Of a stretch of 64,000 nucleotides of DNA, positions 12,397-62,110 are shown in pieces. Below the pieces are notes generated by a model. It worked only from the letters and a program-made list of their open reading frames with translations, was not told the origin of the DNA and did no database searches. The DNA lies in assembly GCA_015064285.1 (NCBI GenBank), contig SVSN01000003.1, positions 28,629 through 92,628 of the forward strand, in the 5' to 3' direction. Both the position numbers and the translations under genes were made by a program. Position 1 is the first letter of the stretch, and each line of letters opens with the position of its first letter. The DNA is from Oscillospiraceae bacterium. Lineage in GTDB: Bacteria; Bacillota; Clostridia; Oscillospirales; CAG-272.

Positions 12397-14817
12397 ATGG
12401 CCCGTTTTATTGAAAAAGTGGAAAAACTTACCCTGCCGGTGATCCCGCTGCGGGGCATGGTGGCTTTTCCTTCCGTCCCAATCAATTTTGAACTGGAAAG
12501 GGATATGAGCAAAAAAGCCTGTGACGCGTCGCTGAACGCTGATATGTATGTTTTTCTGGTAGCCCAGAAAGATCTTCGCTGTGAAGTCCCGGAACGGAAA
12601 GATCTGTATACGGTAGGCTGCGTTGCAAAAATCAAACAGACCCTGAAAAAGCCGGACGGCAACATCCGCGTTGTGGCGGAAGGAATGTGCCGCGGGCATA
12701 TCTCCCAGATGTTTTCCGAGGACGGCTGCCTGTTCGCCGACATTATTTCCAAGACCATGACCGGTGAATCCGCAGCCACTGACATCAAGGCGGAAGCCCT
12801 GATCCGGGAACTGCTGAACACCATGGAAGGTATGATCCAGTATCTGCCTCCTGTTTCCGATGAATTTCTGATCGCCGCCCGTTCCATCACCAATCCCGGT
12901 CTGCTGGCGGACTTCATCGCTTCCAGCCTGTTCGTACGCTATGATGACAAGCAGCAGGTACTGGAAATGACCGACCCCACAAGACGGGTGGAAAAAGCGG
13001 TTGTGATCATGGAAAACGAGATCCGTCTCCTGGAAACCGAAATGGAGATCCACAAAAAGGTCAAGGAACAGATCGACGAAAACCAGAGAGATTATTACCT
13101 CCGGGAACAGCTCAAGGTCATTCAGAACGAGCTGGAAGAAGGCGATGATGACGATTATTACGGGAAGATCAAGAGAGCCAAACTGCCTCAGGAAGTGGAA
13201 GAAAAGCTGCTGAAGGAACTCTCCCGGCTGCAGAAATCTTCTTTCGGTTCTCCTGAAGCATCCGTACTGCGGAATTATCTGGACATCTGTCTGGATATTC
13301 CCTGGAACAAACGCACTGCGGACCGGGTGGATATTGATGCTGCCAGAAAAATTCTGGATGCGGATCACGACGGTCTGAAGAAAGTCAAGGAACGGCTGCT
13401 GGAGTACCTGGCAGTAAAGCAGCTAAATCCGGATCTGAAGCATCAGATTCTCTGTCTGGTAGGCCCTCCGGGTGTCGGCAAGACATCTCTCGCTTCCTCT
13501 ATTGCCCGGGCAATGAAGCGCAAATATGTACGCGTTTCCCTGGGCGGTGTTCGGGATGAATCCGATATCCGCGGACACAGAAAAACCTATGTGGCTTCCA
13601 TGCCCGGCCGTATCATCACAGCACTGACCCAGTGCGGCTCCATGAACCCGCTTATGCTGCTGGATGAAGTGGACAAAATGTGCTCTGACGCCCATGGGGA
13701 TCCTTCTTCTGCCCTGCTGGAAGTGCTGGATGCGGAACAGAACAAGGGATTCCGTGATCATTTCATTGAAATGCCTGTGGATCTGTCCGAGTGTTTCTTC
13801 ATTGCCACCGCCAACACGCTGGACACCATTCCCCGTCCTCTGATCGACCGTATGGAGATCATTGAACTGAACACATACACCCCTTCCGAAAAACTGTCCA
13901 TTGCAAAGAATCATCTGATCCCCAAGCAGCTGAAACGGCACGGTCTCAACAGACGGACTCTGAAGATCACAGACGATGCCATTGAAGAACTGATTCAGGG
14001 ATATACCCGCGAATCCGGTGTACGTACGTTGGAAAGAGAGATCGCTTCGCTCTGCCGTAAAGCAGCCAAGAAGATTGTAGAAGAAAATCTGAAGTCCGTT
14101 GTGGTGAACAGGGAGACCCTGAAAGCACTGCTGGGCGGCCGGAAGTTTATCGACGAAGGCATCTCCGGAAAAGCGGAAGTGGGCGTTACCAACGGGCTGG
14201 CATATACAGAAGTGGGCGGCGATCTGCTGAAAGTGGAAGCTCTGCCCATGCCCGGTACCGGCAAGATCGAACTGACCGGCACACTGGGGGATGTTATGAA
14301 AGAATCCGCCCATATTGCGGTCAGCTACATCCGTTCCCATGCCAAAGAACTGGGGATCGCCGAAGATTTCTATAAGACACAGGATATACATATCCACGTA
14401 CCGGAAGGTGCTGTGCCCAAGGACGGCCCCAGTGCCGGCGTGACTCTGACCACTTCTCTTGTCAGCGCTCTGTCCGGTATTCCGGTGCGCGGCGATATTG
14501 CCATGACCGGTGAGATCACCCTGACAGGACGTGTCATTCCCATCGGGGGACTCCGCGAAAAATCCACCGCTGCCTATACGGCCGGTATCCGTCATATCCT
14601 GATTCCCAGGGACAACGTAAAGGATCTGGAAGAAATCGATCCTGTGGTCAGAGAAGAAGTTATTTTCACGCCTGTATCCAAGGTTTCCGAGGTGCTGGAC
14701 ATTGCTCTGGTAAAGCCTTCCGCTCTGCCGCTGCCGAACAGTGAACTGCCCAAACCGGAAGAATCGGTTCCCGCAGTGGTAACCGGTACCGGTGAACCCA
14801 CATACACCGCATTATAA
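12397..14817 (+). CDS. lon: ATP-dependent Lon protease (LonA)
   Basis: The N-terminal LON domain reads [13 protein letters not shown]. The Walker A motif is GPPGVGKTS, and the catalytic serine motif is [10 protein letters not shown]. Confidence 0.95.
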
Positions 14818-27734: not shown

Positions 27735-27825
27735 GACTTCGTAATGCGGCATAGGCACGGGTAAGTCTCAGGTGCCCATGCTCTTTTTACTTTTTGACAT
27801 ATTTCTGTATAGAAGGAGACCGTTT

Positions 27826-29925
27826 ATGGCATCCGTTACCGAATACTTCGGCTGTCTTTCCTTTGACGATTCCGCCATGCGGGCCAGACTGCCCAAAGAT
27901 ACGTATAAATCTCTGAAAAAAACCATTGATGAAGGAAAATCTCTGGATATCAATGTAGCCAACATCGTTGCCAACGCCATGAAGGACTGGGCGATCGAAA
28001 AAGGCTGTACCCACTACACCCATTGGTTCCAGCCGCTGACCGGTGTGACTGCCGAGAAACATGACAGTTTTATTTCCCCTATCGGTGACGGCAATATCAT
28101 TATGGAATTTTCCGGTAAGGAACTGGTACGCGGGGAATCCGATGCTTCCAGTTTTCCCTCCGGTGGACTGCGGGCTACTTTTGAAGCCAGAGGATACACG
28201 GCATGGGACCCTACATCCTATGCATTCATCAAAGGAAAAACCCTGTGTATCCCAACCGCATTCTGCTCCTACGGCGGTGAAGCACTGGATAAAAAAACGC
28301 CCCTTCTCCGCTCTATGGATGCCATCAACCGTCAGGCCAAACGGATTCTGAAGCTGTTTGATCCCAACACCGATGTTGCCTGTATCCGTCCCAGCGTAGG
28401 TCCGGAACAGGAATACTTCCTGGTAGACGAGACCATGTACAACCGCCGGAAGGATCTTATCTTCACCGGCCGGACGCTGTTGGGTGCCAGACCGCCCAAG
28501 ACCCAGGAGATGGAAGACCATTATTTCGGTTCCATAAAGCCCAGGGTGGAAGCCTACATGCAGGAACTGGACGAGGAGCTTTGGAAGCTGGGGATCCTTG
28601 CCAAAACCAAACACAATGAAGCCGCTCCTGCCCAGCATGAACTGGCTCCGATATTCACACAGGTCAATATTTCCACCGACCACAACCAGCTGACCATGGA
28701 GATCATGCAGAAGGTTGCCAGAAAGCATGGTCTGGTTTGTCTGCTGCACGAAAAACCTTTCGCCGGTGTAGCCGGCAGCGGGAAGCACAACAACTGGTCC
28801 CTCTCCACCAACACCGGCATCAATCTGCTGACCCCCGGGGAAACACCGTACGAAAACGCACAGTTCCTGCTGTTTCTTTCTGCTGTGATCCAGGCTGTGG
28901 ACGATTATCAGGATCTTCTGCGTGTTTCTGTAGCTACTGCCGGAAACGACCATCGTCTGGGAGCTCTGGAAGCTCCGCCGGCGCTGGTGTCCATCTTCCT
29001 CGGAGATGAGCTCACCGCGATCCTGGAAGCGTTGGAATCCGGTACCCATTATGACCCGCTGGAAAAAACACAGCTGAAACTGGGAGTTCATGTACTGCCC
29101 AAGCTGCCTAAAGATGCCACGGACAGAAACCGTACCTCTCCTTTTGCCTTTACTGGAAATAAATTTGAATTCCGTATGCTGGGTTCCTCCAATTCCATTT
29201 CCGACACAAACGTGGTTCTGAATACTGCGGTTGCAGAATCACTCCGGCAGTTTGCCGACAAGCTGGAAGCCGCAGCGGATTTTGATGCTGCGCTGAACAA
29301 TCTGATCCGGGAAACTATCCGTGCCCATAAGCGTATCATATTCAACGGGAACGGTTATGATGATGCCTGGATACAGGAAGCAACGAAAGAAAGAGGCCTG
29401 CTTAACCTCCGTTCCACACCGGACTGCATGCCGTATATGCTCTCTGTCAAGAATCTGAAGCTCTTTGCCGATCATAAGGTTTTCACGGAAGCTGAAGTGG
29501 AGTCCCGATATGAGATCACGCTGGAGAATTACTGCAAAACCATCCATATCGAAGCGGCTACCATGATCGATATGGTACAGAAGGAGGTTCTCCCTGCTGT
29601 TATGGCCTATACAGGCAAAGTCTGCGAAACCGGCCTTGCCAAGAAGAATTTCTCTGCTGCCATGGACACATCCTATGAAGAAAAACTGGCCTCCAGACTG
29701 ACAGAGCTCACGCGGCTGACTGATGATGGTATCCGTGCTCTGGAGGCTGCTGTGACAGAAGTAGAAAACATCCGCAATCTGACCGACAAAGCATTCGCAT
29801 ACAAGGAAAAGATCTGTACCCGAATGGAAAGCCTCCGCAGTTACTGTGACGAAGCAGAATCCCTGACTGCCGGCAGCTGCTGGCCTTTCCCCACATATGC
29901 AGACCTTCTGTTTGGTGTACGATAA
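27826..29925 (+). CDS. glnN: Glutamine synthetase type III
   Basis: The roughly 700-aa size and the [21 protein letters not shown] and [10 protein letters not shown] motifs match GSIII (Bacteroides/Ruminococcus type). AAGGAG lies 9 nt before the ATG. Confidence 0.85.
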
Positions 29926-38701: not shown

Positions 38702-38751
38702 ATACCTTTACAGTCTGTTATAAAATTTCATACACATAAAGGAGTTCCCCT

Positions 38752-40218
38752 ATGAACAAGCGCATCCTTCTGACCCTGCTGACAGCAGGACTGCTTCTTA
38801 CTTCCTGCGGAAATGCGGCCACCGTTACCGAAACAACAGACGAAACCGGCGACACAACTGTGGAACCCCCTGCGGAAACCGTTGACCCTATCGCTGAAGC
38901 CAAGAATGACTACTATTCTTCTATTGGTACTGTCTCTGCCCCCGGTGTGGAAATCATGTTCCTGTCGGAAACCGATGATGTAGCAGTGGAAGAAGAAACC
39001 GGCGAAAAGTTCAACGATGCTGTCTGGTACCGCAACATCGAAGTGGAAGACCGGCTGAACGTGAAAATTTCCCACGAAGCCCGCGACAACGACGGCTCTA
39101 CTGCCAAGACCCTGACCAATAATGTTCTGGCAGGCGACGGCACTTATGACGCTGCCACCGTATGGACCCATTATGCGGCTTCCATGATCGCTTCCAACAC
39201 CCTGCTGGATCTGAACACCATCCCCCATCTGCAGATGGACCAGAAATGGTGGAATCAGGTTGCCAACAAAAACATGAGCCTTGCCGGAAAGCAGTATGTT
39301 GCTCTGTCCTCCCTGAACCATTACGCCGACTCCGTTGCCGAAATGGTGATGATGAACAAGGATATGTGCATCAACTACAACATGGATATTCCCTATGATG
39401 CCGTCAAGGAAGGCAAGTGGACTTACGACATGATGTGGACCATGATGAATACCCTGCCCCAGGACTCCAACGGTGACGGGAACATGGACACCAGCGACAT
39501 CATCGGTCTCGTAACCCAGATGGCGGACATCGACGCTTCCATGGTATCCTGCGGGGTGGATTTCTTTGCCAAGAACGACAAGGACATTCCCGAATTCATT
39601 CTGAACAGTGAAATCAATGTAGACAAGTTCAACACCATCTTCAACATCTACAATGACAAGACCCGTACCGTTACCGTGCAGAAGGATATCAAAGAAGATC
39701 CCTGGCATTACTGGGAATTTAAGTTCAAGGAAGGCGAAGCTCTGTTCCTGATGAACTTCCCCTGCAACCTGTATGCGTTCGTGGAAATGGAACAGGATTT
39801 CAGCATTCTGCCCATGCCCAAGTATAACGAAGCCCAGGAAACCTACCGCACCATGACTTCTGTATGGTACACCAGTTGTATCGTAACCCCTAAGGTATTT
39901 GATGCAGATCCCGGTGATATCGGTCTGGTCATTGACGCCCTTTCCTTCCTGTCTTACGTGGATGTGGAACCCACCTTCGTAGCCGCTTATCTGGAACAGC
40001 GCTGGATCCGTGACCCCGAATCCGCCGAAATGATGACCATCGCTCTGGAAAACAAGTATTACGATCCCGGTTTCCTGATGAACTTCCAGTGGGGCACTGC
40101 CATCGGTATTCCTTCCAGTCTGGTTACTGCCGGTAAAGACAACTTTGTTTCCACCGTTGTCAGCAAGGCTGCTACCATTGAAAAGGCCATCGAAAAAACC
40201 ATCACCAACATAGAATAA
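38752..40218 (+). CDS. Extracellular solute-binding-type lipoprotein (paralog 3)
   Basis: The lipobox is LLLTSC, followed by a T/E-rich linker with PPAETVDP. It has the same architecture as paralogs 1 and 2 (NDAVWYRN, QKWWNQ, DSNGDGNMDTSD). Confidence 0.65.
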   Translation: MNKRILLTLLTAGLLLTSCGNAATVTETTDETGDTTVEPPAETVDPIAEAKNDYYSSIGTVSAPGVEIMFLSETDDVAVEEETGEKFNDAVWYRNIEVEDRLNVKISHEARDNDGSTAKTLTNNVLAGDGTYDAATVWTHYAASMIASNTLLDLNTIPHLQMDQKWWNQVANKNMSLAGKQYVALSSLNHYADSVAEMVMMNKDMCINYNMDIPYDAVKEGKWTYDMMWTMMNTLPQDSNGDGNMDTSDIIGLVTQMADIDASMVSCGVDFFAKNDKDIPEFILNSEINVDKFNTIFNIYNDKTRTVTVQKDIKEDPWHYWEFKFKEGEALFLMNFPCNLYAFVEMEQDFSILPMPKYNEAQETYRTMTSVWYTSCIVTPKVFDADPGDIGLVIDALSFLSYVDVEPTFVAAYLEQRWIRDPESAEMMTIALENKYYDPGFLMNFQWGTAIGIPSSLVTAGKDNFVSTVVSKAATIEKAIEKTITNIE

Positions 40219-40236
40219 TCCGCAACTGAGGTGAAC

Positions 40237-42513
40237 ATGAAGAATTACATTCTCCACCTGAACAAACCTGCCGGCCGCTGGGACGATGGTACCCCTCTGG
40301 GAAACGGCAGCCAGGGCATGATGCTGTGGGGCGCTCCCGCCGCTGAACAGATCACCCTGAACGAAGAAACCATCTGGTCCGGCGGTCCCATGAACACCCG
40401 TCAGGACGATTACCGCGCCATGATCGACCACACCAGGAAACTGTATCTGGAAGGCCGGGAATGGGAAATCGATCCCTATATCGACTCCCTTGGCAGCGAT
40501 CTGTTCTACCGGATCAAATCCTACGAATACGCGGGGAATCTCTGGGCATACATGGACGGCTTGGATGCTGCGCAAATCACCGACTATCACCGTGATCTGG
40601 ATCTGACAGACGGAAAAGCGGTTATCTCCTTCCGCAAAGATGGGGTTCTGTATACCCGTGAAGCCTTTTCCTCTCATGTATCCGGCCTGCAGTGTGTACG
40701 GTTCACCGCTGATGAACCCTTTGCGCTTCGGCTGGAATTCACCAGAGAATGCACGGACGTATTGGATTATAAAGAAGGCTGGATCGTAGCCCACTGTCAT
40801 ACTGCGTTCGGCGATAACAAATTCCGCGTCTGTGTCAAAGTGGAAACAAACGGCTCCCAGACTGTCAGCGAAAACGGACTGTGCATTGCCGATGCTGCTG
40901 AAGTGATTCTGTATATCGGGATCTTCACAGGGTTCCGTCATGACTGTCTTGAATCCGCTTCCGCTGCCGGGATGATGAAAGCTGCCAAAGGCTGGGATGC
41001 CCTGCTTGCGGAACACACTGATGATTTTTCTGCAATCATGGGTCGGTCTGATATTGACTTTACACCTTCCGCCGGGACAGACCTGAGCAGCTGCAGTGCT
41101 GCCGATCGTCTTCAGGCACTGAAAGATGACGAAAATGCAGAAGACCCGCAGCTTATCTCCCTTTACTACCAGTTCGGCAAATATCTGCTGGTTGCCTCCA
41201 GCCGTGAAGATACTCTGCCCGCCAATCTGCAGGGCGTCTGGTCCGAAGGGATGAATTCCCCCTGGAATGCCGACTACCACACCAACATCAACCTGCAGAT
41301 GAACTACTGGCACGCGGAAGAAGCAGGGCTTGGAGAATCCGTGCAGGCTCTGTTCACCTATATGAATGACTATCTCCTGCCCGGCGGCAAGCGTGTGGCG
41401 GCAGAAAATTACCACGCCCGCGGTATGGTTGTCCATCATGTCAGCGATATTTACGGTTTTGCGGCAGCAGCGGACGGCCCCTGGGGTATGTGGCCTATGG
41501 GCGGTGCCTGGCTGGCCTTCCATATGTGGGAACACTATCTCTATACCGGCGACAAAGAGTATCTGAAGAATACGGCATACGACTATATCCGGGAAAACGC
41601 ACTGTTCTTCATGGACATGCTCTTTGAAGACGGCAAGGGCGGCCTGCTTTCCGGTCCTTCCACTTCTCCCGAAAACCGCTTCTTTGTGACTGACGATGCA
41701 GGGGAAACCAAATCTGCGTACATCACTATGTCTCCTTCCATGGACACGGAAATCATCGGAGGACTGCTGCGGTTCTACAAGGAAACGGAAGAGATCCTGG
41801 GACTCCATCCGGAAGACGGTATCCTGGCCGGCGAAATGGCAGACAGACTCCCACCGCTGACCGTCGGCAAGCACGGTCAGCTGATGGAATGGGCCAGGGA
41901 CTACGACGAACCGGAACCGGGTCACAGACATGTTTCCCATGCTTTCGGTTTGTATCCTGCTGCCCAGATCACCCGTGCTACGCCCGAGCTGTTCAAGGCC
42001 ATTCGTGTTACCATGGACAGACGATTGGCTTCCGGCGGCGGACATACGGGCTGGAGCCGTGCATGGCTGATCAATATGTTCGCCAGACTGCGGGATGGTG
42101 AACATACATATAAAAACATCCGCGCTCTGTTCACCCAATCCACCCTGCCAAACCTGTTTGACGCCCATCCGCCCTTCCAGATTGACGGCAACTTCGGAGG
42201 TGCTGCCGGGATCGGAGAAATGGTTTTGCAGAGCCACGAAAAGTTCCTCTCTCTGCTACCTGCCCTGCCTGACAAACTGGCAAACGGTTCTTTCTCCGGT
42301 CTGCAGGCCAGAGGCGGATACACTGTGGATGCTTCCTGGACCGGCGGTATGGTCGATACTTTCCGTATCTATTCGGCCGACAACAGCGCTGCAGATGTGG
42401 AGCTTCCCGCAGCCGACGGCACTGTCTATATCTCTGAAGCAGGCACTGCGTATACTGTGAAAAACGGTATGCTACATCTCCCCGGCAATGCACTGCTGAC
42501 TAAGCAGAAATAA
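40237..42513 (+). CDS. Glycoside hydrolase family 95 protein (alpha-L-fucosidase-like), with no signal peptide
   Basis: The N-terminus W..GTPLGNGSQGMMLWGAPAAEQITLNEETIWSGGP is the GH95 N-terminal signature. LQGVWSEGMNSPWNADYHTNINLQMNYW also fits. The product is about 758 aa. Confidence 0.8.
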   Translation: MKNYILHLNKPAGRWDDGTPLGNGSQGMMLWGAPAAEQITLNEETIWSGGPMNTRQDDYRAMIDHTRKLYLEGREWEIDPYIDSLGSDLFYRIKSYEYAGNLWAYMDGLDAAQITDYHRDLDLTDGKAVISFRKDGVLYTREAFSSHVSGLQCVRFTADEPFALRLEFTRECTDVLDYKEGWIVAHCHTAFGDNKFRVCVKVETNGSQTVSENGLCIADAAEVILYIGIFTGFRHDCLESASAAGMMKAAKGWDALLAEHTDDFSAIMGRSDIDFTPSAGTDLSSCSAADRLQALKDDENAEDPQLISLYYQFGKYLLVASSREDTLPANLQGVWSEGMNSPWNADYHTNINLQMNYWHAEEAGLGESVQALFTYMNDYLLPGGKRVAAENYHARGMVVHHVSDIYGFAAAADGPWGMWPMGGAWLAFHMWEHYLYTGDKEYLKNTAYDYIRENALFFMDMLFEDGKGGLLSGPSTSPENRFFVTDDAGETKSAYITMSPSMDTEIIGGLLRFYKETEEILGLHPEDGILAGEMADRLPPLTVGKHGQLMEWARDYDEPEPGHRHVSHAFGLYPAAQITRATPELFKAIRVTMDRRLASGGGHTGWSRAWLINMFARLRDGEHTYKNIRALFTQSTLPNLFDAHPPFQIDGNFGGAAGIGEMVLQSHEKFLSLLPALPDKLANGSFSGLQARGGYTVDASWTGGMVDTFRIYSADNSAADVELPAADGTVYISEAGTAYTVKNGMLHLPGNALLTKQK

Positions 42514-53992: not shown

Positions 53993-54517
53993 ATGGAGCA
54001 CAGAAAAGAATACACCAGTCACCGGGATATGCTGGATGACGCCATGCTGCAGCGTATTCTGGCGGATATGACTGATGAAAGAGATGACACACGATTCTGC
54101 GGATGCATGTCTCACGGCGACTCTCGGTACCAATCTTCCCGCAGTGAAAGAACCGGCAATTCTCCCTGCGACAAAGGATGCGGCAGCGCCCGTCAGGCCT
54201 ATGAAAATCGGCAGAACCGTGGGAATTGCAAAATCTGCGATGAACGCCAGACCTGCGGCGATCACCACCCCCGCGGGGAATGGAACCCTGCAGAAAACGA
54301 TACCTGTCCGGACAAATATGACTGCGTATCCGGTCATTCGGCTTCCCTGCTCAGGGGATATCCGCTGGCCATGGTATATTCACCCAACCAGGAATGGGAA
54401 GGTATCCTGGAAGCCGAAGAAGCCCTTGACAGGGGAACCATTTTTACCGGTCTGCTCTTCCCCTGGTATCCTTCCCGCTGCAAAGACAACGGCGGATGCG
54501 GCTGCGGGAGGAACTGA
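53993..54517 (+). CDS. cotJA: CotJA-family spore coat protein with a long Cys-rich N-terminal extension
   Basis: The C-terminal LAMVYSPNQEWEGILEAEEALDRGTIFTGLLFPWY is the CotJA signature. The preceding 120 aa or so are rich in Cys, Arg and Asp. Confidence 0.7.
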   Translation: MEHRKEYTSHRDMLDDAMLQRILADMTDERDDTRFCGCMSHGDSRYQSSRSERTGNSPCDKGCGSARQAYENRQNRGNCKICDERQTCGDHHPRGEWNPAENDTCPDKYDCVSGHSASLLRGYPLAMVYSPNQEWEGILEAEEALDRGTIFTGLLFPWYPSRCKDNGGCGCGRN

Positions 54518-54520
54518 CGT

Positions 54521-54787
54521 ATGCATGATATGAATGAACAGAAAAGATTATTCCGGATGATCCAGCAGGTATCCTTTGTGCTGTATGAAACGGCTCTGTA
54601 TCTGGATACCCATCCCCACTGCCGTCCTGCGCTGGCGTATTTCAACAAGTACAATGCCAGACGCCGGGAACTGATGGAAAAGTATGAGTCCAAATATGGC
54701 CCACTGACCATGTACGGACAAAACTGCAGCAGCGACCACTGGCAGTGGGTGGAAACGCCCTGGCCCTGGGAATACGATTGCCAGTGA
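54521..54787 (+). CDS. cotJB: Spore coat protein CotJB
   Basis: LFRMIQQVSFVLYETALYLDTHPHCRPALAYFNKY is the CotJB signature. Confidence 0.85.
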   Translation: MHDMNEQKRLFRMIQQVSFVLYETALYLDTHPHCRPALAYFNKYNARRRELMEKYESKYGPLTMYGQNCSSDHWQWVETPWPWEYDCQ

Positions 54788-54805
54788 TGGGGAAAGGATC
54801 AATCT

Positions 54806-55420
54806 ATGTGGATTTATGAAAGAAAACTGCAGTACCCGGTGAAGATCAAGAATCCCAATCCGCTGTACGCAAAAATCATTATTTCGCAGCTGGGAGGGCC
54901 TGACGGAGAACTGGCTGCCTCCACCCGTTATCTGAGCCAGCGTTTCTCCATGCCCTATCGGGAAGTTTCCGGCATTCTGACGGATATCGGTACTGAAGAA
55001 CTGGCGCATGTGGAAATGGTAAGCGCCATTCTTTATCAGCTCACCCGGAATCTTTGTGAAGAAGAAATCAAGAAATCCGGGTTCGACACCTATTTTGTGG
55101 ATCATACCGCAGGTGTATATCCCATTGCTGCGTCCGGTGTTCCTTTCGACGCCAAATATATCGGTGTAAAGGGAGATGTTCTGGCGGATCTGAACGAAGA
55201 TCTGGCAGCAGAACAGAAAGCGCGTGTAACGTATGACAACCTGCTCCGACTGATAGATGACCGGGATGTCTGCGAACCGCTTTCTTTCCTACGTGAAAGA
55301 GAACTTGTGCATTACCAGCGCTTCGGTGATGCGCTCCGCATTGCGCAGGATCGGATGGATTCGCAGAACTTCTACGGATGGAATCCCGCATTTGACCGGA
55401 AGCCGGATTCACGGAAATAA
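54806..55420 (+). CDS. cotJC: Spore coat protein CotJC (manganese catalase family)
   Basis: MWIYERKLQYPVKIKNPNPLYAKIIISQLGGPDGELAASTRYLSQRF and EELAHVEM are present. Confidence 0.9.
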   Translation: MWIYERKLQYPVKIKNPNPLYAKIIISQLGGPDGELAASTRYLSQRFSMPYREVSGILTDIGTEELAHVEMVSAILYQLTRNLCEEEIKKSGFDTYFVDHTAGVYPIAASGVPFDAKYIGVKGDVLADLNEDLAAEQKARVTYDNLLRLIDDRDVCEPLSFLRERELVHYQRFGDALRIAQDRMDSQNFYGWNPAFDRKPDSRK

Positions 55421-55788: not shown

Positions 55789-56214
55789 ATGATTTTGGGA
55801 ATACATTTCCTGCAACTTGTCATAATTACTGTAAAACCATTTTTTCAGTATACCAAAGGAGGCGTATTTTCTCTGGGTCTTTCTGTTACGGGAGCGCTTG
55901 TGACTTTTTTTACCGGTTTTTTGATTGCATACATCAACTACCTGATGATGAAAAAAGGCACCGACAAATCAGGTACCGCGGCCTTGCTTCTGCCTCTGCT
56001 CCGTACGCTGATCAGTGCGGGCTATCTGGTGGCTGTATTTTTTCTGGCCCCTCTCACGCCGTGCGATCCGATCTGGCTGCTGGCAGGTGCTGCGGCCGGG
56101 CTGACGCTTCCCATGTTCTTTTTCACGTTTCTTCTCATCCGGCAGCTGAAGCCTTCGGATGACAATCAAGAAACGGAGCATTCTGACAATTCTGACAAAG
56201 GAGGGGATGTTTAA
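55789..56214 (+). CDS. Small membrane protein upstream of atpB (AtpI/AtpZ-like); start uncertain
   Basis: The product is hydrophobic and sits in the position of atpI. AAAGGAGG at about 55855 suggests a more downstream, non-ATG start. Confidence 0.5.
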   Translation: MILGIHFLQLVIITVKPFFQYTKGGVFSLGLSVTGALVTFFTGFLIAYINYLMMKKGTDKSGTAALLLPLLRTLISAGYLVAVFFLAPLTPCDPIWLLAGAAAGLTLPMFFFTFLLIRQLKPSDDNQETEHSDNSDKGGDV

Positions 56215-56215
56215 A

Positions 56216-56893
56216 ATGGGAGAAAAATCCGAAGTGATCATTCCTCTGGGCGGGATTCTTGATATCACCGGAGAAGTCATTGCCATGTGGGTACTTCTGG
56301 CACTGATTACGGTACTTTCAATTCTGGCTACCCGGAATATGAAAGAACGGCCTGGCACATTCCAGAATCTGGTGGAAACCGGCGTTGAATATCTGGACAA
56401 CTTCTTCACCGGTATCATCGGAAAGCATCATACAAGGAAATACTTTTATTTTCTCGGCTCCCTGTTCATCTTCATTATTTTCGCAAACTATTCCGGACTC
56501 ATTCCCGGTGTGGGACTGACCCGGTATTTCAAGGCGCCGACTTCTTCCCTTTCCGTCACACTGGGGTTGGGGGTTGTAACCTTCTGTTTCCTGCAGATCT
56601 CGGGACTACGGGCAGGTGCCGGCCATTATTTCAAACGGTTTGTCAGCCCCATTGCTTTCATGCTGCCGCTGATGGTACTGGATGAATTCATCAAGCCCGC
56701 TTCTCTGGCACTCCGTCTGTTCGGCAACGTATTCGGAGAAGAAACCGTAACCCACAATCTGTATGACCTGCTGCCCATCGGCGCACCGGTTCTGATGATG
56801 GCGCTTTCCCTGCTGTTCTGTGCCATCCAGGCCGTAGTCTTCACCATGCTGACTTCCATTTATCTGGAAGAAGCCGTAGAAGTGGAAGACTGA
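56216..56893 (+). CDS. atpB: F0F1 ATP synthase subunit a
   Basis: LALRLFGNVFGEE carries the essential Arg motif of subunit a, and the protein is polytopic. The start is ATG 56216 (ATG 56207 is an alternative). Confidence 0.9.
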   Translation: MGEKSEVIIPLGGILDITGEVIAMWVLLALITVLSILATRNMKERPGTFQNLVETGVEYLDNFFTGIIGKHHTRKYFYFLGSLFIFIIFANYSGLIPGVGLTRYFKAPTSSLSVTLGLGVVTFCFLQISGLRAGAGHYFKRFVSPIAFMLPLMVLDEFIKPASLALRLFGNVFGEETVTHNLYDLLPIGAPVLMMALSLLFCAIQAVVFTMLTSIYLEEAVEVED

Positions 56894-57596: not shown

Positions 57597-57608
57597 TAAA
57601 GGAACGAA

Positions 57609-59837
57609 ATGCTGCATTTTGTTTATTCACTCATAAATTTTGCTCTTCTTTTATTGATTGTCTGGTTGATCGGACGGAAAATGATAGCCAATATATTCAT
57701 TGGACGCCAGGAAAAGATCAATCGCGCACTGGATGAAGCAGAGCGTCTGGAAACAGAAGAACCAACGCTCCCCGTTATACCGGAAAAATTCCGCGAAGAG
57801 CTGCCGGATACTGTAAAAGCAGAGATTGCCGAAATTCAGGAAGCTGCTGCAGAACACGTGGGTCATATGCAGCAGCAGACAGACGCCACCATCGAAAGTC
57901 TGCGCCGGGAAATGCTCCTGGACGTAAAGAGCCGTTACATCGATAAACTCGTGGATAAAGTGACTGCGATTGTGATCTCCGAACCTTTTCTGTCCGCTTT
58001 CCGCGCCAGAGAAAATGAGTTTACCGACAGAATCATAGAAACCATGACCCTTACCCCCGGGGATATAGCTTATCTGAAACGGCATGATGTACTGTATGTG
58101 ACCCTGACTTCCGCCTATAAGATGCCCCAGTCCATTGTGGATCGGATCGGTAAGCACGCCACTCAAATGCTTGACAAGGTTGGCGGTAAGCCATCTTACT
58201 GGGTCAAGGTGGATCCGGAACTGATTGCCGGTTTCCGTTTCCGTGTGGGGGATACTGTTTACGACTACACCCTTTCCGATCGTCTTTATCAGCTGCGGAA
58301 GCATCTGGAATCCAGAGAACTGCAGGGAGACGAAGACGCCGAAGCACTGATTGCCGATATGTTTGAAGATATCAGCGGTATGACAAACTCTCTCAGCGAA
58401 TTCCAGCTGGGCCGCGTTATCAGCATTTCCGATGGGATCTGCTGGCTGGACGGGCTTGCTGACATTATGTATGGGGAAGTTATCGAGTTTGAGTGCGGTG
58501 AAATGGGTATGGTGCTGGATATCGAACCTGACCGGATCGGCTGTATTGTCTACGGCCGGTATGAAAACATCGAAAGCGGCAGCCGGGTACGCCGTGTCGG
58601 CCGGATTGCCAGTGTACCGGTCGGAGACGAACTTCTCGGCCGTGTTGTGGATCCACTGGGCCGGGCACTGGACGGAAAAGGCCGTATCTGGACAAACGAA
58701 CGCCGTCCCATTGAGAACAAAGCCCCCTCCATTCCGGACAGAGCAGGTGTCTCCCGTCCCCTTCACACTGGGATCAAAGCGATTGATGCGCTGGTTCCCA
58801 TCGGAAGAGGGCAGCGTGAACTGATCATCGGCGACCGCCAAACCGGGAAAACTTCCATTGCGCTGGATGCCATCATCAACCAGAAAGGCACCGGAACCAT
58901 CTGTATTTACGTAGCTATAGGCCAGAAAGACACTACGATCGCCGACATCCGTGAAAAGCTGACCAAGTATGGTGCCATGCCTTATACCACGTTGGTATGT
59001 GCTCCCGCTTCCGTTTCCGCTTCCATCCAGTACATTGCGCCGTTCGCCGGTGCTGCCATGGCAGAATACTTCATGTATCAGGGACGGGATGTGCTGATCG
59101 TGTACGACGACCTTTCCAAGCATGCCGTGGCGTATCGTGAACTCTCCCTTCTGCTGCATCGTCCTTCCGGCCGTGAAGCCTATCCCGGGGATGTGTTCTA
59201 TCTCCACGCCAGACTGTTGGAAAGAGCGGCACAGCTGTCTGCTGAAAACGGCGGCGGTTCCATCACCGCCCTGCCAATTATTGAAACGCAGGCAGGGGAT
59301 ATTTCCGCTTATATTCCCACCAATGTCATTTCCATCACGGATGGTCAGATTTTTCTGGATGCCGACCTGTTCAACGAAGGTCAGCGGCCCGCTGTCAACG
59401 TGGGGCTTTCTGTCTCCCGTGTAGGCAGTGCCGCCCAGACCAAACTGATGAAACAGGTTTCCGGCAGACTGCGTATGGATCTGGCACAGTACAGAGAGCT
59501 GGTAGGTTTTACCCAGTTCGGTTCCGATGTTGACGCTTCTACCAAAAAGGTACTGGAATCCGGCAAACGAATGATGGCTGCCCTTCTGCAGAACCGGTAT
59601 GCTCCCCTGCCCGACTGGGAACAGGCACTTCTGCTGTTCGCTGTATCGGAAGGTTATGCTGCTTCTGTGGATCCTTCCGGCATCGAAATGTGGGGTACCT
59701 ATCTTGCCAACCATATGGAAATCCGGTATCCTGCTCTGGCTGATATTCTGAAGTCCGGCCGCAAGCTGGACGATACAGAAAAGGAACGCCTGAAGGAAGC
59801 CATTGCTGCTTATGTGACAGACTGTGAGGTAGCGTAA
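57609..59837 (+). CDS. atpA: Fused b-like / delta (OSCP)-like / alpha subunit of F1F0 ATP synthase (742 aa)
   Basis: This is one uninterrupted frame. The N-terminal TM helix plus RQEKINRALDEAERLE is b-like. VKVDPELIAGFRFRVGDTVYDYTLSDRLYQLRKHL is the delta C-terminal signature. From GRVISISDGICWLDGL onward it is a complete alpha subunit with Walker A GDRQTGKTS. Confidence 0.8.
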   Translation: MLHFVYSLINFALLLLIVWLIGRKMIANIFIGRQEKINRALDEAERLETEEPTLPVIPEKFREELPDTVKAEIAEIQEAAAEHVGHMQQQTDATIESLRREMLLDVKSRYIDKLVDKVTAIVISEPFLSAFRARENEFTDRIIETMTLTPGDIAYLKRHDVLYVTLTSAYKMPQSIVDRIGKHATQMLDKVGGKPSYWVKVDPELIAGFRFRVGDTVYDYTLSDRLYQLRKHLESRELQGDEDAEALIADMFEDISGMTNSLSEFQLGRVISISDGICWLDGLADIMYGEVIEFECGEMGMVLDIEPDRIGCIVYGRYENIESGSRVRRVGRIASVPVGDELLGRVVDPLGRALDGKGRIWTNERRPIENKAPSIPDRAGVSRPLHTGIKAIDALVPIGRGQRELIIGDRQTGKTSIALDAIINQKGTGTICIYVAIGQKDTTIADIREKLTKYGAMPYTTLVCAPASVSASIQYIAPFAGAAMAEYFMYQGRDVLIVYDDLSKHAVAYRELSLLLHRPSGREAYPGDVFYLHARLLERAAQLSAENGGGSITALPIIETQAGDISAYIPTNVISITDGQIFLDADLFNEGQRPAVNVGLSVSRVGSAAQTKLMKQVSGRLRMDLAQYRELVGFTQFGSDVDASTKKVLESGKRMMAALLQNRYAPLPDWEQALLLFAVSEGYAASVDPSGIEMWGTYLANHMEIRYPALADILKSGRKLDDTEKERLKEAIAAYVTDCEVA

Positions 59838-62110
<2,273 letters not shown>

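Follow-up and report, generated by a model that had tools for sequence, protein, structure and literature searches.

A natural b-delta-alpha fusion in the F-type ATP synthase operon of gut and rumen Clostridia, and how it may lead to an enzyme with more than one peripheral stalk

How many peripheral stalks might an F-type ATP synthase assemble if each of its alpha subunits brought its own? The question is raised by a stretch of 64,000 nucleotides from an Oscillospiraceae bacterium (contig SVSN01000003.1, positions 28,629 to 92,628), hereafter the window, in which the atp operon reads atpI-like, atpB (a), atpE (c), atpF (b'), a fused gene, atpG (gamma), atpD (beta) and atpC (epsilon). In the textbook F-type enzyme one peripheral stalk goes with one a subunit, and the size of the c-ring has been taken to be the only source of variation in its ion/ATP ratio. 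The product of the fused gene is a polypeptide that comprises a complete b subunit, then delta's C-terminal domain (delta-C), then a complete alpha subunit. A previous inspection of the DNA, made from the letters and without database searches (the sequence-only reading), had noticed the fusion and regarded it as a paradox, since a stalk or membrane anchor would be attached to all three copies of alpha unless the protein were processed or initiated internally. We consider instead, with a probability of about 0.6, that the operon encodes a natural multi-stalk F-ATP synthase, in which an uncleaved 82-kDa fusion would furnish each alpha subunit with a b arm that pairs with a free b', so that up to three stalks could form.

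The open reading frame (ORF) of 742 codons, at 57609-59837 on the plus strand, is free of interruptions. Its N-terminal part is matched by Pfam ATP-synt_B (PF00430) at residues 4-49, with 31.6 bits against a cutoff of 28, and in relatives the match reaches residues 3-125. The first residues are strongly hydrophobic (mean hydropathy 2.38 over residues 4-22). A family profile was built from 23 diverse N-terminal parts and run against all PDB chains. Positions 3-138 of this profile align with residues 11-155 of the 168 in the b subunit of Bacillus PS3 and with residues 11-154 of the 156 in Acinetobacter b, and chloroplast b is found as well; the partners in these alignments are whole subunits. 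The sequence-only reading had likened residues 1-50 to b. That homology holds up in the profile searches, but the b-like part extends well beyond residue 50 and amounts to a whole subunit.

The delta-derived part is restricted to one domain, the C-terminal alpha/beta domain by which delta binds b at its C-terminus. Pfam OSCP (PF00213) matches residues 157-233 with 38.9 bits (cutoff 22.3) through profile positions 98-172 of 172 only; positions 1-97, the N-terminal part of delta, have no match in the fusion protein. The family profile aligns with solved delta chains in the same manner (residues 113-176 of 178 in PS3 delta, 108-175 of 177 in E. coli delta and 115-186 of 190 in bovine OSCP). In the PDB profile search no solved delta or OSCP chain aligns before its residue 87-115 or so, and the N-terminal helical bundle of delta (delta-N), which in ordinary enzymes sits on the F1 crown, is not detected. 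The full-length delta model TIGR01145 gives 25 bits on the fusion, below its cutoff of 57.5. A delta signature had been placed at residues 125-235; the OSCP C-half is indeed there, with its start nearer to residue 155, and the bundle that had been judged absent or very short is undetectable with Pfam and with the PDB profiles alike. We also considered a delta-N domain hidden in residues 50-157 and rejected it; this stretch aligns with b subunits and is modelled around a single 56-residue helix, not a bundle.

The remainder is a complete alpha subunit, as had been read. The NCBIfam atpA model TIGR00962 scores 710.5 bits (cutoff 484.45), with residues 253-737 covering model positions 13-499 of 503, and the expected Pfam domains follow one another (PF02874 at 268-331, PF00006 at 388-603 and PF00306 at 610-734). 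The Walker A motif GDRQTGKTS is present, PDB alpha chains are matched with E values of about 1e-160 to 1e-181, and the mean identity to 120 full-length homologs is 79%. The search with hidden Markov models that had been proposed has thus found all three families, ATP-synt_B, OSCP and alpha, in one protein. The linker between delta-C and alpha had been given as SRELQGDEDAE, of which only the first half stands. The conserved GDEDAE belongs to the normal N-terminus of alpha (about positions 9-13 of the atpA model), and the real linker is therefore only SRELQ(G), about five residues long. The tryptic peptide that spans this junction, residues 237-269, is ELQGDEDAEALIADMFEDISGMTNSLSEFQLGR.

A monomer model was calculated with AlphaFold2 (AF2) from a 134-sequence alignment and has a mean predicted local distance difference test score (pLDDT) of 76. 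In this model the b part consists of a transmembrane (TM) helix at residues 2-20, a helix at 22-49, a Pro-rich break at 50-66, a long 56-residue helix at 67-122 and then short connector helices. The delta-C part is predicted to form four strands (161-168, 194-201, 209-213 and 216-219) and two helices (174-189 and 222-234), the same fold that delta-C has in Chloroflexus (PMC12002316), and an alpha N-terminal helix at 244-257 precedes the alpha body. The Pro-rich break, TEEPTLPVIPEKFREELPDTV, is encoded at 57756-57806 and separates the membrane-proximal helix from the long stalk helix. Pro55 and Pro58 are nearly invariant amongst the 134 homologs. The free b' has no counterpart of the break, and in a divergent branch (P0059, see below) a continuous Ala-rich helix takes its place. 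It may act as a hinge in the fused b arm.

The simplest objection to all of this is that the fusion is not real: a missed stop codon or a frameshift might have joined separate b-delta and alpha genes, or the copy might be a pseudogene that is not expressed. We found no support for such an artefact beyond a broken frame in two of 80 related loci, and the observations on the other side make it vanishingly improbable. Gene calling yields an identical 742-residue protein on 12 contigs, which derive from separate metagenome samples of ENA and JGI. Searching with the whole protein identified at least 120 distinct clusters at 90% identity, 731-754 residues in length and 65-94% identical to the query, all with the same set of Pfam domains; at NCBI they are named merely 'F0F1 ATP synthase subunit alpha' and come from metagenome-assembled genomes of Ruminococcaceae and Clostridia. 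An exhaustive phmmer search with residues 1-244 against 1.84 billion representatives returned no more than 163 proteins at E <= 1e-3. Among them are full-length branches that lie deeper and that (P0022, 745 residues; P0037, 751; P0059, 753, from uncultured Firmicutes CAG:555/Oscillospiraceae; P0062, 724) have an N-terminal identity of 26-39% and the same architecture of b, OSCP C-half and alpha. The survey of relatives that the sequence-only reading had called for gave matches to the module in at least 510 species-representative genomes. The figures for loci given here and below refer to the best 80 of these, nearly all of which belong to Clostridia of the gut or rumen that are uncultured and go under the labels Acutalibacteraceae, Oscillospiraceae, 'Ruminococcus sp.' or Eubacteriales.

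In 76 of the 80 loci the ORF is intact, with a length of 731-790 residues. The incomplete loci are three that are cut at a contig or locus end, one in which the frame is broken by a masked run of N (L065, CAVEPP010000063.1) and one with a single in-frame stop codon in the beta-barrel of alpha (L079, JAZOAX010000210.1; ADIM*GEVVEF), which points to an error in sequencing or else to a pseudogene of recent origin. Neither broken frame lies at the junction, and in none of the 80 loci is the gene split between delta and alpha, so the missed stop or frameshift that had been feared there is seen neither in these loci nor in the independent assemblies. Linker length is fixed amongst the 134 aligned homologs, with no indels or frame breaks, and all parts of the fusion are under strong purifying selection. 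The gene has the AGGA core of a good Shine-Dalgarno (SD) sequence 5 nt ahead of the ATG and a stop codon that directly adjoins the start of atpG. The order of the operon is identical wherever the flanks are present, and all 80 loci inspected have the fusion in the same collinear form. Matches of about 255-266 residues that resembled close natural 'split' relatives proved to be contig-end fragments that run into alpha, not free b-deltaC genes. The fusion is real and under selection. As a side observation, L065 is titled 'Alloprevotella sp.' yet carries a Clostridia-type operon, and its contig is probably mis-binned.

The operon and the 64-kb window hold no delta gene and no second alpha, in agreement with the sequence-only reading as far as delta is concerned, and neither a free delta nor a second alpha occurs within +/-10 kb in the 80 related loci.

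The closest solved structure is that of an engineered enzyme. Ueno et al. (Nat Commun 2025; PMC12229609) deleted residues 2-104 of PS3 delta and joined residues 105-178 to the N-terminus of alpha through a short linker. This deltaDeltaN-alpha enzyme assembled with up to three copies each of the stalk and of the a subunit, and its H+/ATP ratio was 5.8, compared with 3.0 for the wild type, from which the authors concluded that delta-N restricts F-type enzymes to one stalk (PMC12229609). The structure, PDB entry 9jc1, is near-best by sequence and best by structure. Chain I is collinear with the fusion protein through the delta-C/alpha junction (query residues 200-689 with chain residues 40-528), and chains I, K and J are the three best PDB matches of the AF2 model in Foldseek, with 573-576 aligned columns against 470-506 for ordinary alpha chains. 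The two proteins share the loss of delta-N and the attachment of delta-C to the alpha N-terminus by a very short linker at nearly the same boundaries (PS3 delta residues 105-178 were kept in the design and residues 113-176 are matched here). The PS3 enzyme is without a separate delta, and here none is found in the operon, the window or the +/-10 kb flanks. Both enzymes have an epsilon subunit devoid of its C-terminal domain, by design in the one case and naturally in the other. They differ in the stalk itself. The PS3 enzyme uses free b2 homodimers, whereas here a complete b with its TM anchor is fused upstream and the partner is a distinct b'.

The attachment of a stalk to each of three alpha subunits need not be a paradox, then, given that a deltaDeltaN-alpha fusion has been shown experimentally to assemble with up to three (PMC12229609). 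The proposal that the covalent link replaces the grip of delta-N on the alpha N-termini likewise matches the design rationale of that work. Natural delta-alpha fusions without delta-N are noted in one paragraph of the same paper, namely D2RLW6 from Acidaminococcus fermentans together with G4Q3K6 and A0A1I2C5T3 (PMC12229609). They are described there only as deltaDeltaN-alpha, and our comparison with them is by that description alone.

A natural precedent for more than one stalk comes from Chloroflexus aurantiacus. Its F1Fo, solved by Zhang et al. (PNAS 2025; PMC12002316), has a pair of stalks and a pair of a subunits and rests on two deltas that have a shortened N-domain and dimerize on the F1 crown. 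The multiple stalks and a subunits of that enzyme are attributed to the reduction of delta-N (PMC12002316). Unlike the Chloroflexus enzyme, which has separate dimerizing deltas, two b2 stalks and no fusion, delta-N is wholly absent in our protein and the attachment is covalent, an arrangement that would allow three stalks.

Two further systems resemble the N-terminal half. Mycobacterial and actinobacterial b-delta (AtpFH, about 445 residues; PDB 7jg5_d and 8j0s_d) has one stalk helix continuous with delta and a separate, shorter b-type partner. AtpFH nevertheless keeps the full delta including the N-terminal domain, is not joined to alpha and occurs once per complex, giving one stalk. The N-terminal part of the fusion matches the mycobacterial chains only in the TM region of b and at the C-end of delta, and the AtpFH model PRK13428 scores 30 bits, against a cutoff of 328. 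The second system is the 'long b' subunit of N-ATPases (TIGR03321, PRK14474), in which b leads directly into a delta-C-like domain without delta-N, as in the fusion, but which is free-standing and not joined to alpha. N-ATPases have no delta and a longer b (PMC5706428). Three free-standing proteins of 246-249 residues (P0079, P0097 and P0083), which are distant matches of the N-terminal part of the fusion, contain ATP-synt_B and the OSCP C-half and match TIGR03321 and PRK14474 end to end, below the cutoffs. Among the matches only such distant N-ATPase-like long b subunits are truly free-standing. Their delta-C-like end seems to have had less notice than it deserves, and may be what the module evolved from. 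Membership of the operon itself in the N-ATPases was considered and ruled out. Its order is a-c-b'-fusion-gamma-beta-epsilon, as opposed to beta-epsilon-(Q,R)-a-c-b-alpha-gamma, and the scores are below cutoff for both the alpha model (TIGR03324, 585.1 against 750.5) and the b model (TIGR03321, 25.8 against 224.7).

The long b subunits also bear on whether the fusion persists as one polypeptide. The gene might encode a precursor or yield two products, proteolysis of the linker or internal initiation freeing an alpha subunit of about 55 kDa and a b-deltaC of about 28 kDa, in which case the mature enzyme would resemble an N-ATPase, with a long b and no delta. That free-standing b-deltaC subunits of 246-249 residues exist elsewhere indicates that the module can work unfused. 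The conserved junction motif LEKRxLxG[DN]E[DT]AE could in principle be a cleavage site, and in some relatives an ATG stands 8 codons ahead of the barrel, with a GAGG at 11 nt upstream of it. Against this, the in-frame Met codons in the linker region of the window gene, Met251 (58359) and Met258 (58380), lack a usable SD sequence, as the sequence-only reading had observed, and in many relatives these positions are occupied by I, L, V, T, A, Q or R. Over the stretch from delta-C to the alpha barrel, in-frame ATG, GTG or TTG codons fall at scattered places, no position being conserved, and five of the 71 loci analysed lack them altogether. We found no promoter-like site within the b-deltaC part. 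Annotated ORF starts, used as a rough SD control, gave a weak result (30 of 71), since translation does not always begin at the first start codon in an ORF, so the case rests on the absence and scatter of start codons rather than on SD counts. Conserved internal initiation is rejected on these grounds as a general mechanism, and one escape from three stalks that had been envisaged is left unsupported. With respect to proteolysis, the conservation of GDEDAE is explained by the normal alpha N-terminus and requires no protease, and the junction is split in none of the 80 species. Even after cleavage b-deltaC and alpha would have been made 1:1 and delta-N would still be missing, such that multiple stalks would still be expected. 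We regard a precursor or dual-product gene as improbable.

What would an enzyme assembled from the uncleaved fusion look like? The F-type operon is complete except for a delta gene, and the one alpha gene in it specifies a single 82-kDa polypeptide of three parts. Since this sole alpha gene is fused and the operon has no delta, every alpha position in alpha3beta3 would carry its own delta-C cap and its own b arm to the membrane. Each fused arm would most likely pair with one free b' (AtpF, about the length of the arm) to give a heterodimeric b/b' peripheral stalk. The free b' and the fused b arm are weakly similar (33% over 54 residues). Such a distant similarity between partners is also found in the b/b' heterodimers of cyanobacteria and in the b plus b-delta pair of mycobacteria. 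Up to three stalks in threefold symmetry could result, in place of the single stalk of ordinary F-ATP synthases. The fusion would moreover force b-deltaC and alpha to be equimolar, three of each per F1, when a one-stalk enzyme would need a ratio of 1:3. By analogy with the engineered PS3 and the Chloroflexus enzymes, each stalk could keep a separate a subunit in place at the c-ring. The ions that cross per c subunit per turn would then number more than one and the ion/ATP ratio would rise, permitting ATP synthesis at low ion-motive force or, in reverse, low-gear pumping. We infer that the protein stays uncleaved and that b' pairs with each arm, and likewise how many stalks and a subunits there are, the ion specificity, the ion/ATP ratio and which way the enzyme runs in the cell. 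What the sequences show is the architecture with its missing delta-N, its conservation in hundreds of species, its collinearity with the engineered fusion, and an operon and flanks free of delta and second-alpha genes.

Several considerations weigh against the multi-stalk enzyme. The operon has one a gene, and the number of a subunits hinges on expression levels. The engineered enzyme averaged about two stalks, with partial loss of stalks on electron cryo-microscopy grids (PMC12229609). The conserved Pro-rich break at residues 50-66, absent from b', makes a continuous coiled coil between the arm and b' uncertain. Absence of delta and of a second alpha is established for the operon, the window and the +/-10 kb flanks only. 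The predicted monomer (pLDDT 76) is silent on assembly, and proteolytic cleavage in the conserved linker would be compatible with the sequence. Finally, all of the 80 genomes inspected are metagenome-assembled and uncultured, and the fusion is at present seen through its genes.

Some of these considerations suggest a modified assembly, with three arms and one working stalk. The uncleaved fusion would occupy all alpha positions, one arm would engage b' and a single a subunit, and the other two would be idle tethers or serve in assembly or stability; the ion/ATP ratio would remain at the c-ring size divided by three. There is a single a gene and a single b' gene, with no sign of elevated dosage, and occupancy was incomplete in the engineered enzyme, at about two stalks on average. 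The least conserved regions of the fusion are the stalk helix (67-140) and the Pro loop, at about 30% identity. However, in the engineered and Chloroflexus enzymes every additional stalk brought in a further a subunit, although these too have a single a gene. The TM and membrane-proximal part of the arm is well conserved, at 55% mean identity with Tyr6, Asn10, Phe11, Leu14, Arg23 and Lys24 nearly invariant, as expected for specific contacts. Two free TM helices would also orbit a rotating c-ring without evident benefit. On balance we judge the idle arms unlikely, and retain the multi-stalk enzyme as the reading that we prefer.

In its fullest form the multi-stalk reading leads to a stronger proposal, which we put forward tentatively and would not yet bet on. 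Hundreds of species of gut and rumen Oscillospirales-type Clostridia might possess a threefold-symmetric natural F-ATP synthase with three b/b' stalks and three a subunits around one c-ring, and an ion/ATP ratio that would come close to the c-ring number (about 10 or more) and not to a third of that number.

The features of the fused gene and of the operon are listed in Table 1. The operon order of the sequence-only reading is confirmed by ORFs, Pfam matches and gene calls.

Table 1. Coordinates in the window of the fused gene, its parts and the other genes of the atp operon
Feature	Coordinates	Strand	Size or evidence
Whole fused gene, b - delta (C-terminal domain) - alpha	57609..59837	+	742 aa, 82.4 kDa
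Shine-Dalgarno-like AAGGAA ahead of the fusion ATG	57598..57603	+	direct sequence reading
b-subunit part, residues ~1-140	57609..58028	+	PF00430, family profile, hydropathy, AF2 model
delta/OSCP C-terminal domain alone, residues ~155-235	58071..58313	+	PF00213, family profile, AF2 model
delta-to-alpha linker SRELQG, residues ~236-241	58314..58331	+	atpA model coordinates and delta alignments
Complete F1 alpha subunit, residues ~242-742	58332..59837	+	TIGR00962, PDB alpha chains
atpI-like small membrane protein, 141 aa, first operon gene	55789..56214	+	ORF and gene call
atpB, Fo subunit a, 225 aa, single copy	56216..56893	+	PF00119 ATP-synt_A, 156 bits
atpE, Fo subunit c, 76 aa	56939..57169	+	PF00137 ATP-synt_C, 63.8 bits
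atpF, free b/b' subunit, 138 aa	57180..57596	+	PF00430 over 7-137, 49.2 bits
atpG, gamma, 277 aa	59838..60671	+	PF00231, 155.7 bits
atpD, beta, 465 aa	60713..62110	+	PF00006, PF02874, PF22919
atpC, short epsilon, 102 aa	62112..62420	+	PF02823 (beta-sandwich) only

Neither Pfam nor NCBIfam has a family that matches the hydrophobic atpI-like ORF, yet nearly all of the related loci have a homolog of it upstream of atpB, and the protein is probably a divergent assembly factor of the AtpI/AtpZ type. The best NCBIfam match of atpF is subunit B' (PRK08476), and its length is 138-145 residues in most of the related loci. In epsilon the NCBIfam models match positions 1 to about 87 only and the C-terminal, inhibitory helical domain is absent; short epsilon ORFs (about 90-117 residues by crude ORF calling) are found in nearly all of the related loci. 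The c subunit has an ion-binding region reading GQG ... LSLMEALTIYG and an Ala-rich first helix (AIAAAIAIAVS) in place of GxGxGxG. We take the ion-binding region to be like the H+-type site of chloroplast and cyanobacterial c, without the Ser/Thr of Na+ sites.

Just upstream of the operon, at about 53993-55420 on the plus strand, the gene table of an identical contig places the spore-coat genes CotJA, CotJB and CotJC (of the Mn-catalase type) together with ComEC. The CotJ genes indicate that the host is a spore-forming Firmicute. Elsewhere the window encodes a Lon protease, at 12397-14817, and at 27772-29925 a glutamine synthetase of type III. An ORF of 1,025 codons at 57651-60728 on the minus strand, antisense to the fused gene and atpG, is not a gene but a shadow of codon bias. 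The codons TTA, CTA and TCA, read as stops from the other strand, hardly occur in any gene of the window, and the fused gene and atpG together have just two of them (57627 and 57651). Further long ORFs without a Pfam match, such as that at 38728-42237 on the minus strand, may likewise be codon-bias shadows.

The principle of joining delta without its N-domain to alpha, and some natural fusions of this kind, are already known since 2025. The fusion of b onto delta-C-alpha, with a separate b', appears to be undescribed; the Acidaminococcus proteins, published only as deltaDeltaN-alpha, could carry a b part as well. Our search of the open-access literature, with subscription journals outside its scope, found no description of a b-delta-alpha triple fusion, nor of the wide distribution of the fusion in uncultured gut and rumen Clostridia. 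Current annotation is apt to conceal it; under 'F0F1 ATP synthase subunit alpha' or 'subunit delta, partial' the 82-kDa fusion is hidden and the genomes look as though they were without atpH.

A large and ecologically important group of uncultured gut and rumen Clostridia thus carries, in the sole alpha gene of its atp operon, a more extreme form of a design known from engineering, and a natural operon is available to express and solve. Should the threefold-symmetric enzyme prove true, no other rotary ATP synthase known would run in so low a gear, and it would represent an adaptation to a fermentative life in which ion-motive forces are very small. Evolution would then have arrived at what was put forward in 2025 as an engineering route unlike nature's own. 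If the enzyme assembles as its architecture implies, then these fermenters would have another gear ratio than metabolic models assume, and with it another threshold of ion-motive force for making ATP and another price in ATP for keeping up a membrane potential.

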